A DNA stretch of 64,000 nucleotides from GCA_000165345.1 CM000436.1:448001-512000, one strand, 5' to 3'. Positions 34,080-37,451 are shown, counted from the first letter of the stretch. Numbers and translations: made by a program. The notes: generated from the letters alone by a model not told the origin.

Positions 34080-37000
34080 ATGAACCGAAAGGTAGCAGGA
34101 ATACTTTCTTTAATATTGGTTCTATGCTTTCTTGGGCCTACATATCAGGCAAGTGGAGAAACTAGAAGTCTAAGACCTAATGATCAAAGTTCACAAATAG
34201 TAAACCCAGAATGGAGGTTTTTTACTAATGTTTTGGAGTTATTACTATTCCAACCGGGGAGGGCCATGGGCACACCTTGGCCAGAAAAGGGACCATACGA
34301 ATTTACCAAGTTATTTAATAATAATGATAAGCAAGATTTTTGTGAAAGATGCGTTAGATTAATGGACAATTGGGAGAATTCAGAGCCACATATGATTCTC
34401 TTTAGAGCTCCAAAATACTTTTCCAAATTTCCGCAGGTGTTTTACGTGGCTTGTGGATCTGTTGAATCGAAATTCTTACGTGATGAAAGTTCTAAAGGCG
34501 AAAATAATAATGAATCTGAATGTATTACTATTTACAACAAATTCAGTCTACACAAGTACTACGAAGGATTTAGTTCTGCTCCAACTTTAAGAAGACGTGC
34601 AGCATTCCCAGCTACACATACTGATCATAGACCATTTAAACCATTGTATGATCCATTATACAAGATACCTACAAAGACAACACAAATTAGAAAAACTACA
34701 ATTGATTACTCTAAGCACAAATATATTCCAATAATTCCAAAGAATACTGATAGTAAGCCAAGAGCTTCTTATCCAATTTCTCATACATCTGTGTTGGTCG
34801 ATTCAAAACATAGGTATGTTCCAATTACGCAGAAAGTTCCTGGACCTGATAGTCCTAAGAGTAGATACCCCAAGAACACATCTCATAAATACATTCCTAT
34901 TATTACGACAACTAAGAATGATGAAAATGCGGCCTTCCCAGCATCTAGAACTCAATATCCAACTAATCCAAATCATAAATTTGTTCCACCTGTAAATAAA
35001 CAATCTTCAAGCCATGACACAGCTTCTTTACCAGCTTCAAGAACTGGAGCTCTAATTGACTCAAATCACGGATATATTCCATTATATATGACATACAATT
35101 ACACCGAGAGTGCAGCATTCCCAGCTTCTAGAACCAGTTTCCCAGCTGATCCAAAGCATGGCTTTGTTCCTCTATATATTTTGGATAACTCAACAGAAAC
35201 AGCAGCTTTACCAGCTTCTAGAACTCGCTATCCTTCAGATATGTATCATAGATATATTCCATTATACATGGCATCCAATAATACTGAGAATGCAGCATCT
35301 CCAGCTTCTAGAACAAGGTTCCCAGTTAATACTAGGCACGGATTCATTCCTCTTTATATTATTTCTAACTATCATGAAACGGCATCTTCCCCAGCTTCCA
35401 GAACTCACTATCCAGTTGAACATAACCACGGCTTTATTCCTTTATATCAAAGGGTTTCATACTTTAATTTAACAGCATCTTTCCCAGCTTCAAGAACTAG
35501 TCAACCAACTGAGACCAAGCACAAATTTATTCCAATATTCGAGATTTACAACCAAACTGAGACTTCCTCACTCCCAGCTTCAAGAGTAGGAGCCATTATT
35601 GACACCAAGCATGGATATATTCCAATCTTCCAAAGAATTGCAAACAACGAAACTGCTTCATTCCCAGCTTCGAGGACAAGTCATCCCTCTGATCCAAATC
35701 ATAGATATATTCCTCTATTTGAGGTTATGGAAAACAATGAAACAGCATCTTTCCCAGCTTCTAGAACAAAGCTACCAGCTAACACTGAACATGGATATAT
35801 ACCTATTTTGGAGAGGATTTACTACCTTAATAGCACTGTAGCTCTTCCAATGTCTAGAGTAAGTGCTCCAATTGATACTAAGCACAATTATATCCCAGCT
35901 TTCAATAGTAATTTAGAGTATAATGGTGGAAATGCATCTTTCCCAGCTTCCAGGACTCAATATCCAGCTGATCCAAATCATGGTTTCATTCCTCTATTTA
36001 TGGTTGAGAACTCTACAGAAACTGCAGCATTCCCAGCTTCTAGAACAAAGTACCCAGCTAATACTGAGCATGGATTCGTTCCTCTATTTGAGTCTTCTAT
36101 ATTTGAAGGAAGAAACGCTTCTCTACCAGCATCAAGAACCCAATTCCAAATGGACTCTAGACATGCCTTTATTCCTCTATTTACTAACACGAACTATAGT
36201 GATCATAATGCATCTTTCCCAGCTTCTAGAACTCATTATCCAGCTGATCCAAATCATGGTTTCATTCCTCTATTTATGGTTGAGAACTCTACAGAAACTG
36301 CAGCATTCCCAGCTTCTAGAACAAAGTACCCAGCTAATACTGAGCATGGATTCGTTCCTCTATTTGAATCTTCAACATATGAAGGAGGAAACGCATCCTT
36401 ACCAGCCTCAAGAACTCAGTTCTTAGTGGATTCTAGACATGGTTTCATTCCTTTATTAATTTCAGATTATAGCTCCAACGAAACAGCTGGATTACCTGCT
36501 TCTAGAACCCATTATCCAACTGATACAATTCATGGTTTTGTGCCTTTAATTCCAGACTCTGAGTATAATGTTGGAAATGCATCTTTCCCAGCTTCCAGAA
36601 CTCAATATCCAGCTGATCCAAATCATGGTTTCATTCCTCTATTTATGGTTGAGAACTCTACAGAAACTGCAGCATTCCCAGCTTCTAGAACAAAGTACCC
36701 AGCTAATACTGAGCATGGATTCGTTCCTCTATTTGAATCTCCAACATATGAAGGAAGAAATGCATCTTTCCCTGCATCAAGAACTCAATTCCAAATGGAC
36801 CCTAATCATGGATTTGTTCCCTTATTTACAAAGTTATACCTTTATAATGATACTGCAGCTTTACCTGCTTCTAGAACTGGGCAACCTTCGGAAACAACCC
36901 ACGGATTTATTCCTCTCTTTGGATCTAATGAAAACTTTGAAACTTCATCTCTCCCAGCATCTAGAGTTAAGGCACCATCAAATCCCAATCATTCATATAT

Positions 37001-37451
37001 TCCTGTCATTCCTGAACACCTTGACCAAGAACATGCCGCAAAGCCCGCCTCTAGAACTGGAGCCCCTGCCCCGGGGGCGCCGGCGGGAAATCTCCCATAT
37101 ACAATATTGGTTTCAATTCCAAAGGCAGCATTACCGGTATCTCGTACAGATACATTATCAGAAAGTCATGCATTTGTTCCATTAGTAAAGGAAAGAGAAG
37201 ATATTGGTCCTAGAGCAGCATTCCCTGCAACTCATACATCGGTTGAAGCTCCAGGATTAGGAAGCCAGCAACCAGGAATTAACTGGGAACATTTCACTGA
37301 GGTACTTAAAGTCGACTCTGAAGGTAATCCATATGTTGACACTAAATACGGAAGAATTTATGGATTTGGTGATTTGGGTTCTATATTGTCTCAGCTTGAT
37401 CAAGCTGAGGCAATAGAAAATACCCCACAGCAGATTATCGAAGACCATTAA
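34080..37451 (+). CDS. Secreted mucin-like glycoprotein with about 28 tandem ~30-aa repeats (consensus A-A/S-F-P-A-S-R-T-x-Y-P-x-D-P-N-H-G-F-I-P-L-F-x-x-x-N-x-T-E-T)
   Basis: The first ATG is at 34080 (the track start at 34044 is TTG) and gives the signal peptide MNRKVAGILSLILVLCFLGPTYQASG. There is no C-terminal hydrophobic anchor. Each repeat carries an N-glycosylation sequon (NSTET, NASF, NETAS) and Ser/Thr residues. Confidence 0.7.
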   Translation: MNRKVAGILSLILVLCFLGPTYQASGETRSLRPNDQSSQIVNPEWRFFTNVLELLLFQPGRAMGTPWPEKGPYEFTKLFNNNDKQDFCERCVRLMDNWENSEPHMILFRAPKYFSKFPQVFYVACGSVESKFLRDESSKGENNNESECITIYNKFSLHKYYEGFSSAPTLRRRAAFPATHTDHRPFKPLYDPLYKIPTKTTQIRKTTIDYSKHKYIPIIPKNTDSKPRASYPISHTSVLVDSKHRYVPITQKVPGPDSPKSRYPKNTSHKYIPIITTTKNDENAAFPASRTQYPTNPNHKFVPPVNKQSSSHDTASLPASRTGALIDSNHGYIPLYMTYNYTESAAFPASRTSFPADPKHGFVPLYILDNSTETAALPASRTRYPSDMYHRYIPLYMASNNTENAASPASRTRFPVNTRHGFIPLYIISNYHETASSPASRTHYPVEHNHGFIPLYQRVSYFNLTASFPASRTSQPTETKHKFIPIFEIYNQTETSSLPASRVGAIIDTKHGYIPIFQRIANNETASFPASRTSHPSDPNHRYIPLFEVMENNETASFPASRTKLPANTEHGYIPILERIYYLNSTVALPMSRVSAPIDTKHNYIPAFNSNLEYNGGNASFPASRTQYPADPNHGFIPLFMVENSTETAAFPASRTKYPANTEHGFVPLFESSIFEGRNASLPASRTQFQMDSRHAFIPLFTNTNYSDHNASFPASRTHYPADPNHGFIPLFMVENSTETAAFPASRTKYPANTEHGFVPLFESSTYEGGNASLPASRTQFLVDSRHGFIPLLISDYSSNETAGLPASRTHYPTDTIHGFVPLIPDSEYNVGNASFPASRTQYPADPNHGFIPLFMVENSTETAAFPASRTKYPANTEHGFVPLFESPTYEGRNASFPASRTQFQMDPNHGFVPLFTKLYLYNDTAALPASRTGQPSETTHGFIPLFGSNENFETSSLPASRVKAPSNPNHSYIPVIPEHLDQEHAAKPASRTGAPAPGAPAGNLPYTILVSIPKAALPVSRTDTLSESHAFVPLVKEREDIGPRAAFPATHTSVEAPGLGSQQPGINWEHFTEVLKVDSEGNPYVDTKYGRIYGFGDLGSILSQLDQAEAIENTPQQIIEDH
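34920..37030 (+). repeat. Coding tandem-repeat array with a 87-96-nt period, containing three ~165-nt near-identical higher-order blocks (35931-36095, 36207-36368, 36575-36737)
   Basis: The string catctttcccagcttc[c/t]ag[a/g]actca[a/t]tatccagctgatccaaatcatggtttcattcctctatttatggttgagaactctacagaaactgcagcattcccagcttctagaacaaagtacccagctaatactgagcatggattcgttcctctatttga recurs three times at above 97% identity. Other units are more diverged. Confidence 0.9.

Follow-up and report, generated by a model that had tools for sequence, protein, structure and literature searches.

A central tandem-repeat array in a predicted secreted protein apparently confined to Cryptosporidium: whole-unit turnover, local conversion and a putative role as N-glycosylated scaffold or spacer

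Within GCA_000165345.1 CM000436.1:448001-512000, a 64,000-nucleotide (nt) stretch of Cryptosporidium parvum DNA that we refer to as the window and whose positions are counted from its first letter, a plus-strand open reading frame (ORF) encodes a protein dominated by tandem repeats of about 30 amino acids (aa). This locus raises the questions of (i) how its repeat array has evolved; (ii) what kind of protein the array forms; and (iii) how widely that protein is distributed. We favour, with moderate confidence, the view that the array is the central part of a secreted protein found only in Cryptosporidium, that it changes by turnover of whole units together with local conversion, and that it forms a putative N-glycosylated scaffold or spacer.

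The coding sequence (CDS) and the parts into which the protein can be divided are the following.

34080 to 37451, plus strand: complete intron-less CDS of the repeat protein, 1123 aa plus stop (ATG at 34080, stop codon at 37449-37451).
34080 to 34157, plus strand: predicted signal peptide (MNRKVAGILSLILVLCFLGPTYQASG), the sole hydrophobic segment (Kyte-Doolittle 19-residue mean 1.8).
34158 to 34607, plus strand: conserved N-terminal domain (N-domain), aa 27-176, with four Cys and ending in APTLRRRAAF.
34608 to 34937, plus strand: two long degenerate units of 55 aa (PATHT… and PISHT…), aa 177-286, each with H-[KR]-Y-[IV]-P motifs.
34938 to 37043, plus strand: canonical array of 23 units of 30-32 aa, aa 287-988.
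37044 to 37448, plus strand: three degenerate terminal units (PASRTGAPAPG…NLPYTILVSIPKAAL, PVSRTD… and PATHT…) and the conserved C-terminal domain (C-domain; WEHF…GNPYVDTKYGRIYGFGDL…).

Having a signal peptide and no membrane anchor, the protein is predicted to be secreted and soluble: its hydropathy profile revealed no transmembrane segment, no hydrophobic C-terminus and no tail resembling a glycosylphosphatidylinositol (GPI) attachment signal. The signal-peptide cleavage site was placed by inference from the sequence and not with a predictor. Of its five Cys residues, residue 16 belongs to the signal peptide and the others (88, 91, 125 and 148) to the N-domain; the array has no Cys. In an alignment of the C. 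parvum, C. xiaoi, C. ryanae and C. andersoni proteins, 60 columns of the N-domain are invariant; the C-domain carries the signature WEHF…GNPYVDTKxGRIYGFGDL, and together with the terminal units it is kept one-to-one in all Cryptosporidium homologues.

The position of the ORF between cgd8_1760 and cgd8_1780 on chromosome 8 suggests that it is cgd8_1770. As the exact 1123-aa protein is encoded by four chromosome-level contigs, one of which (C. parvum record CP029787.1) is base-for-base the same as the window over the gene, an assembly artefact was ruled out.

Using P-x-[ST]-[RH]-[TV] as the anchor to delimit units, we found 28 of them, namely the two long degenerate units upstream, the 23 canonical units and the three degenerate units downstream. 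An earlier sequence-only reading had placed about 28 repeats of some 30 aa at 34920-37030, an interval that essentially corresponds to the canonical array. Tandem Repeats Finder reported periods of 93, 180/183, 276 and 369 nt (scores 377-1072). The canonical unit follows the pattern [FL]-P-A-S-R-T-x-[YF]-P-x-[DN]-x-x-H-G-[FY]-[IV]-P-[LI]-[FY]-x(5-8)-N-x-[TS]-x-x-A-[AS]. Five positions (P1, S3, R4, H13 and P17) are invariant in all 23 canonical units, while A2 is present in 22 and T5 in 20 of them, and positions 15 and 16 are restricted to F/Y and I/V, respectively. The invariant core had previously been drawn more widely: these five positions stand, but the string P-x-D-P-N-H-G-F-I-P-L-F is the sequence of the young blocks described below rather than of the array at large. 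Likewise, the single N-glycosylation sequon (N-x-S/T) assigned to every unit is present in most canonical units (20 of 23, in 19 of these within the unit tail) but is missing from three.

The array also contains four second-frame ORFs of 80-205 aa on the plus strand (35110-35472, 35599-35841, 35923-36426 and 36568-37185). All lie wholly inside the conserved gene and are most likely by-products of a stop-free frame in the repeat unit.

Three segments of the array stand apart by their mutual similarity.

35931 to 36099, plus strand: near-identical block 1, units 14-15; its identity is 97.0% with block 2 and 97.3% with block 3.
36207 to 36375, plus strand: near-identical block 2, units 17-18; its identity with block 3 reaches 36397.
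36576 to 36744, plus strand: near-identical block 3, units 21-22; the similarity runs on in the 5' direction to 36561 when block 1 is the partner and in the 3' direction to 36766 when block 2 is.

In pairwise comparison, the matches are 169, 184 and 191 nt long (97.0-97.4% identity, five mismatches per pair), and the blocks share a core of 131 nt that does not differ among the three (35961-36091, 36237-36367 and 36606-36736), so that the three blocks of more than 97% identity seen by the sequence-only reading are borne out. For units outside the blocks, no pair exceeds 84% identity (median 67%, the first 57 nt being compared), and the most similar paralogue of each unit outside the blocks is 53-80% identical over 90 nt. 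Furthermore, identity at third codon positions is 84-100% inside the blocks as against a median of 47% for other unit pairs, which indicates that the likeness of the blocks reflects recency or conversion and not constraint on the protein.

Comparison with C. hominis separates this young material from the remainder. For 17 of the 23 canonical units of C. parvum, identity to the positional counterpart in C. hominis is 91-99%, as against only 53-80% to the closest paralogue; the bulk of the array is hence old and positionally stable. Paralogues are closer than orthologues only for units 14/17/21 and 15/18/22, the other 17 behaving as stable orthologues. Unit 14 of C. parvum is 98.9% identical to its own unit 21 and 94.4% to its C. 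hominis orthologue, and unit 15 of C. hominis is 98.9% identical to its own unit 22 and 93.3% to its orthologue. In addition, the same three-nucleotide patch (TY versus IF) distinguishes C. hominis alleles in units 15 and 22 alike, a signature of ectopic gene conversion. By these comparisons, only the three blocks appear to be young; the recent recombination that had been proposed for the near-identical supra-repeats is borne out, whereas most of the array was not recently generated.

We then compared the number of units among assemblies, retrieving the locus from each through the neighbouring gene.

C. parvum, five chromosome-level assemblies: 1123 aa, 28 units.
C. hominis GCA_045269125: 1123 aa, 28 units.
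C. hominis TU502-2004, GCA_001483515 and GCA_001593465: 1062 aa, 26 units.
C. tyzzeri: 1031 aa, 25 units.
C. meleagridis, two assemblies: 1052 and 1112 aa, 26 and 28 units.

All length differences among species and assemblies are in frame and amount to whole units, with breakpoints in CCAGCTTCTAGAAC or CATGGTTTCATTCC. The units at both ends of the array are fixed, and totals range from 25 to 28 in these four species. The 183-nt insertion/deletion (indel) of C. hominis corresponds exactly to units 7-8, with breakpoints in CCAGCTTCTAGAAC. Three assemblies that were deposited separately carry the 1062-aa allele, one of them differing at a single nucleotide, and because of this recurrence, and because the units joined by the deletion are only about 65-70% identical, we take it to be a real allele. 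The two deletions of C. tyzzeri (90 and 186 nt) have their breakpoints in the FPASRT-coding and HGFIP-coding motifs, and the 180-nt difference between the C. meleagridis assemblies is one copy of a perfect two-unit tandem; the length differences in these two species could partly reflect assembly collapse. C. meleagridis has amplified units 4-5 and not 14-15, indicating that different internal units expand in different lineages. No length polymorphism was seen among the five chromosome-level C. parvum assemblies, one of which has three nucleotide substitutions. The copy-number polymorphism expected between isolates is thus found in C. hominis (1062 and 1123 aa) and C. meleagridis (1052 and 1112 aa), with C. 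tyzzeri differing as well, but not in C. parvum, where the assemblies are uniform.

A related expectation, that the repeats might collapse in short-read assemblies, was borne out in so far as the repeat does disrupt them. However, the C. parvum contigs fragment rather than collapse: of the 16 Logan short-read contigs with similar gene content, the three examined all end at window position 36711, inside block 3. A C. hominis short-read contig also ends within the gene, 684 nt before its 3' end. The partial draft models of C. serpentis and C. felis are probably truncated through the same repeat-caused contig breaks.

Whole units are thus gained and lost in register, with breakpoints in the DNA for the (F)PASRT and HGFIP motifs, and in C. 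parvum a duplicated segment of two to three units, present three times, is held at 97% identity or more by ectopic gene conversion. Such gain and loss of units combined with local conversion is ordinary behaviour of coding tandem repeats. The repeats of Plasmodium CSP and MSP and of the yeast FLO and ALS adhesins are alike in their in-register whole-unit indels, their higher-order repeats, the greater likeness of paralogues than of orthologues and the breaks that they cause in short-read assemblies. Unlike in those systems, the units of the Cryptosporidium gene are mostly old, distinguishable and conserved in position, and a single segment of two to three units is being actively homogenised.

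The gene is genuine and evolves under purifying selection. Of its 3372 positions, 127 differ between C. parvum and C. hominis, and the ratio of nonsynonymous to synonymous substitution rates (dN/dS) between the two species is 0.23 for the whole gene; it is lower in the N-domain (0.05) and the C-terminal part (0.09) than in the array (0.25). Not a single amino-acid change affects the invariant unit positions. The degenerate 55-aa units (aa 177-286) have a dN/dS of about 1.2, a value obtained from small counts (13 nonsynonymous versus 3 synonymous changes), and this segment could be under relaxed or positive selection. It is the latter segment, together with the secretion of a tandem repeat whose copy number differs among isolates and species, that would best fit an immunodominant repeat antigen or decoy, subject to diversifying selection and changing its copy number for immune evasion. 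Against this stand the low dN/dS and the invariant motif positions of the array itself, the identical length of the five C. parvum assemblies and the narrow range of 22-28 units across seven intestinal species, and we regard an immune decoy as very unlikely.

With respect to the kind of protein that the array forms, its composition is 10.8% Pro, 19.5% Ser plus Thr, 12% Phe plus Tyr and 4.7% His, and the longest run of Ser or Thr is three residues. The sequence-only reading had called the protein mucin-like, and a heavily O-glycosylated, disordered protein comparable to gp900, gp40 or CpMuc would indeed be secreted and repetitive and would have, as here, Ser and Thr in each unit (PASRT, TET). 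These figures do not sustain that label: Ser and Thr are too few and too scattered, aromatic residues are abundant, every unit contains the hydrophobic segment [FY][IV]P[LI][FY], and mean hydropathy falls slightly on the folded side of the charge-hydropathy boundary, so that the composition speaks against classical disorder. Although gp900, gp40/15 and CpMuc are likewise secreted, repetitive and length-variable glycoproteins, they use poly-Ser/Thr tracts with O-linked N-acetylgalactosamine (O-GalNAc), whereas the repeat protein has abundant aromatic residues and Pro and bears sequons for N-glycans; a gp900 peptide quoted in one paper contains a run of 12 Thr, to which the repeat protein has nothing similar. 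We consider a mucin highly improbable.

That same hydropathy would be expected if each 30-aa unit formed one structural turn of a folded repeat, such as a beta-solenoid, a beta-arcade or a lectin-like module, and so would the strictly periodic, invariant Pro, His and aromatic positions of an array under purifying selection. We used AlphaFold2 on the full-length protein (alignment of 5 rows) and on a three-unit segment, for which the 14-row alignment consisted of non-overlapping, in-register repeat triplets. Short strands appear at [FY][IV]P[LI][FY] in the full-length model, but the three-unit model has no regular secondary structure. The mean predicted local distance difference test (pLDDT) score was 29.4 for the full-length protein and 38.4 for the segment; in the two runs no residue reached 70, only one exceeded 50, and every array residue was below 50. 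Moreover, a search of PDB sequences with the family profile gave no match, no Pfam match was obtained, and a conserved Pro sits mid-way in the only hydrophobic segment of the unit. As the alignments are shallow and the constrained N-domain also scored poorly in the full-length run, the low pLDDT is to be read as absent support for a fold and not as proof of disorder. The structured, solenoid-like repeat that had been suggested from the sequence consequently finds no support in these models or in the PDB search, and we judge a folded repeat to be unlikely.

We return to the favoured reading, in which the array would be a non-enzymatic, largely non-globular and probably extended spacer or scaffold bearing N-glycans. 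It would display about 20 regularly spaced glycans, along with aromatic, His and Pro motifs, between the two terminal domains, and the protein would thereby provide an extracellular parasite matrix with a multivalent structural or tethering component. C. parvum oocyst proteins are reported to be N-glycosylated with a preference for NxT sites. Several observations weigh against this reading. Over the whole protein there are 23 sequons, 13 NxT and 10 NxS, and the latter type is reportedly little used by C. parvum. The hydropathy and the 12% content of Phe and Tyr fit less well with a non-globular array, and that term is itself weakly based on two shallow AlphaFold2 runs (5 and 14 rows) with uninformative models, the full-length one of which also placed the constrained N-domain below 50. 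The product of cgd8_1770 is missing from a 798-protein supplement to the oocyst-wall proteome in which both neighbours are detected, no mention of the gene was found in the main text of the literature searched, and the identifier cgd8_1770 was itself assigned from gene order rather than taken from a record. Nor was cgd8_1770 found in expression supplements, as far as these were readable. Little weight attaches to its absence from tryptic proteomes, since trypsin would cut the array mostly into peptides that are either 20-31 aa long and sequon-bearing or very short.

The regular aromatic, His and Pro motifs and the predicted secretion are also what might be expected of a structural protein cross-linked into the matrix of the oocyst wall or of another wall-like layer, in which Tyr, Phe and His would serve for cross-linking or metal coordination as in arthropod cuticle and coccidian Tyr-rich wall proteins. 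Homologues have been named 'YLP motif' and 'HxYxP motif' proteins in public annotation, the products of the two adjacent genes were found in the oocyst-wall preparation, and the C. andersoni orthologue weakly matches Chitin_bind_4 (PF00379; E=0.0026). However, this match (18.4 bits) is below the 25-bit cut-off and covers only 19 of 66 profile positions (46-64), and neither the C. parvum protein nor its units match at all; the product is, as noted, undetected in the wall proteome. Chitin and dityrosine are not known from Cryptosporidium walls, which counts further against such a role. With the arthropod cuticle proteins (Rebers-Riddiford (R&R) Chitin_bind_4, 'YLP motif') the repeat protein shares a local Y-x-A-D-x-x-G-[YF]-x-P, the spacing of aromatic residues and Pro, and secretion, but it lacks the full R&R domain, the sub-threshold match being limited to the C. 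andersoni orthologue. The COWP family is similarly secreted, modular and restricted to the genus; its members are defined by arrays of Cys-rich domains, whereas the repeat protein has no tandem Cys-rich domains and no Cys in its array. We hold a cross-linked wall protein to be unlikely, if less so than a folded repeat.

A bolder variant sees in the 30-aa unit an undescribed, self-assembling structural module, whose evenly spaced aromatic, His and Pro residues and one N-glycan per unit would make it convergent with arthropod cuticle or with other His- and aromatic-rich load-bearing proteins, and which would form fibrils, tethers or a matrix layer of the oocyst or of the parasite-host interface. 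The length of the array, about 22-28 units in species of the intestine and down to 6 in gastric ones, would then be an adaptive 'molecular ruler'. We offer this as a speculative idea with little chance of being right.

Turning to the distribution of the protein, we searched 1.84 billion representative proteins exhaustively with HMMER and obtained five entries, all from Cryptosporidium or near-identical metagenomic sequence except for one spurious satellite translation. The entries comprise a C. bovis protein, a C-terminal fragment from C. felis ('XP motif-containing protein'), a cluster of the partial C. serpentis protein with C. andersoni cand_022510, and a metagenomic fragment 97% identical to the query. 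P0015 and P0019, both from ENA metagenome contigs, were rejected as homologues, being translations of an unrelated satellite with the chance string HGFIPLFMVNP. They are 762 and 1552 aa long with a period of about 80 aa; repeat queries evidently attract spurious matches of this kind. A word-indexed protein search recovered three proteins at 40-43% identity, annotated as 'YLP motif containing protein' in C. bovis and C. xiaoi and as 'HxYxP motif containing repeat protein' in C. ryanae. Matches to a profile of the N-domain were found in Cryptosporidium only. A profile built from a two-unit alignment gave zero matches but missed the known homologues too, and is thus a weak negative.

In Pfam searches, the C. 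parvum protein matched no family at E≤1, its 19 units that were searched individually had no recurrent family at E≤10, and five homologues gave only chance-level matches; neither the Pfam YLP motif nor any other Pfam model was matched at its gathering score. The protein, as judged from these searches, appears to be confined to the genus Cryptosporidium; its repeat motif is without known relatives beyond the genus, and it is annotated yet uncharacterised.

Within the genus, the orthologues share the signal peptide, the N-domain, units of the form P-A-[ST]-[RH]-T…H-x-[FY]-x-P, the terminal units and the C-domain, but those of C. bovis, C. xiaoi, C. ryanae, C. felis and C. andersoni are only 40-50% identical to the C. 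parvum protein. The signature of the orthologue group (N-domain …FQPGRxMGxPWP…FCxxC…APTxxRRA and C-domain WEH…GxPYV…) is kept, with invariant columns across four to five species. The flanking genes are the same in C. hominis, C. tyzzeri, C. meleagridis, C. andersoni and C. bovis. In the last two species the gene lies between the same gene for a ubiquitin-like-domain protein and the same opposite-strand gene of about 700 aa, and this matching gene order identifies the C. andersoni and C. bovis genes as positional orthologues. The C. bovis group has 22-25 units of 31-35 aa and its own independently amplified two-unit block of 67 aa. The C. andersoni protein (cand_022510, a 388-aa model) has at least six units of exactly 30 aa each, which begin with P-A-[ST]-H-T where those of C. 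parvum have P-A-S-R-T. This count is a minimum: units 2 and 3 share 97% identity, and copies may have been collapsed in the short-read assembly. Sequons also occur in the units of the C. bovis group and of C. andersoni.

These unit sequences bear on one further explanation, a polyprotein precursor that is cut at the invariant Arg of each unit to release glycopeptides of about 30 aa. The one Arg per unit in a fixed S-R-T context and the RRR that closes the N-domain would suit such processing, but the Arg is replaced by His in the first and last units and in every C. andersoni unit, and there are no dibasic sites inside the units. We attach almost no credence to a precursor of this type.

The window as a whole has a G+C content of 26-38% and long, closely packed, intron-less ORFs. 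Three further genes were delimited.

38063-40168, minus strand: downstream neighbour cgd8_1780, identical to C. parvum Iowa II EAK89383.1 / Q5CW35.
29182-32904, plus strand: upstream neighbour cgd8_1760, 1240 aa.
17117-19714, minus strand: bifunctional AdhE, cgd8_1720.

Both cgd8_1780 and the 139-kDa upstream cgd8_1760 are named in the oocyst-wall proteome supplement. The product of cgd8_1760 is annotated as secreted with a signal peptide, yet it has ubiquitin-like / Rad60-SLD matches in the middle of the protein (about aa 700-866), an unusual pairing; it is labelled 'asexual specific' in one transcriptome supplement and was also seen in the oocyst-wall preparation. A stand-alone Fe-alcohol dehydrogenase ORF (14348-15787, minus strand) adjoins the AdhE gene. 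AdhE is a bacterial-type fermentation enzyme, treated in the literature as a horizontal transfer and as a drug target. GC skew on the plus strand is +0.19 to +0.27 over 24-34 kb, although two large genes in that interval are oppositely oriented, and it turns negative (-0.10 to -0.16) across the repeat gene (34001-38000), a pattern that probably reflects amino-acid composition and not strand. A scan of the 1175-nt upstream intergenic region for E2F, GCATGC, G-box and AP2-like motifs gave one GGCGCC and some CCAAT boxes and was uninformative.

Short-read assemblies will predictably break at this locus, and caution is warranted with draft models such as the 388-aa C. andersoni protein and the partial C. 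serpentis and C. felis proteins. Whole-unit length alleles (26 versus 28 units) split the C. hominis as well as the C. meleagridis assemblies, making the array a possible typing marker in those two species. Furthermore, few secreted proteins with genus-wide conservation have been characterised in Cryptosporidium; this one is large and under purifying selection, and we found no prior study of it in the literature searched. If the protein is indeed a part of the wall, of a tether or of the parasite-host interface, it would represent a structural element not described before and could be considered as an antigen or as a target for diagnosis.

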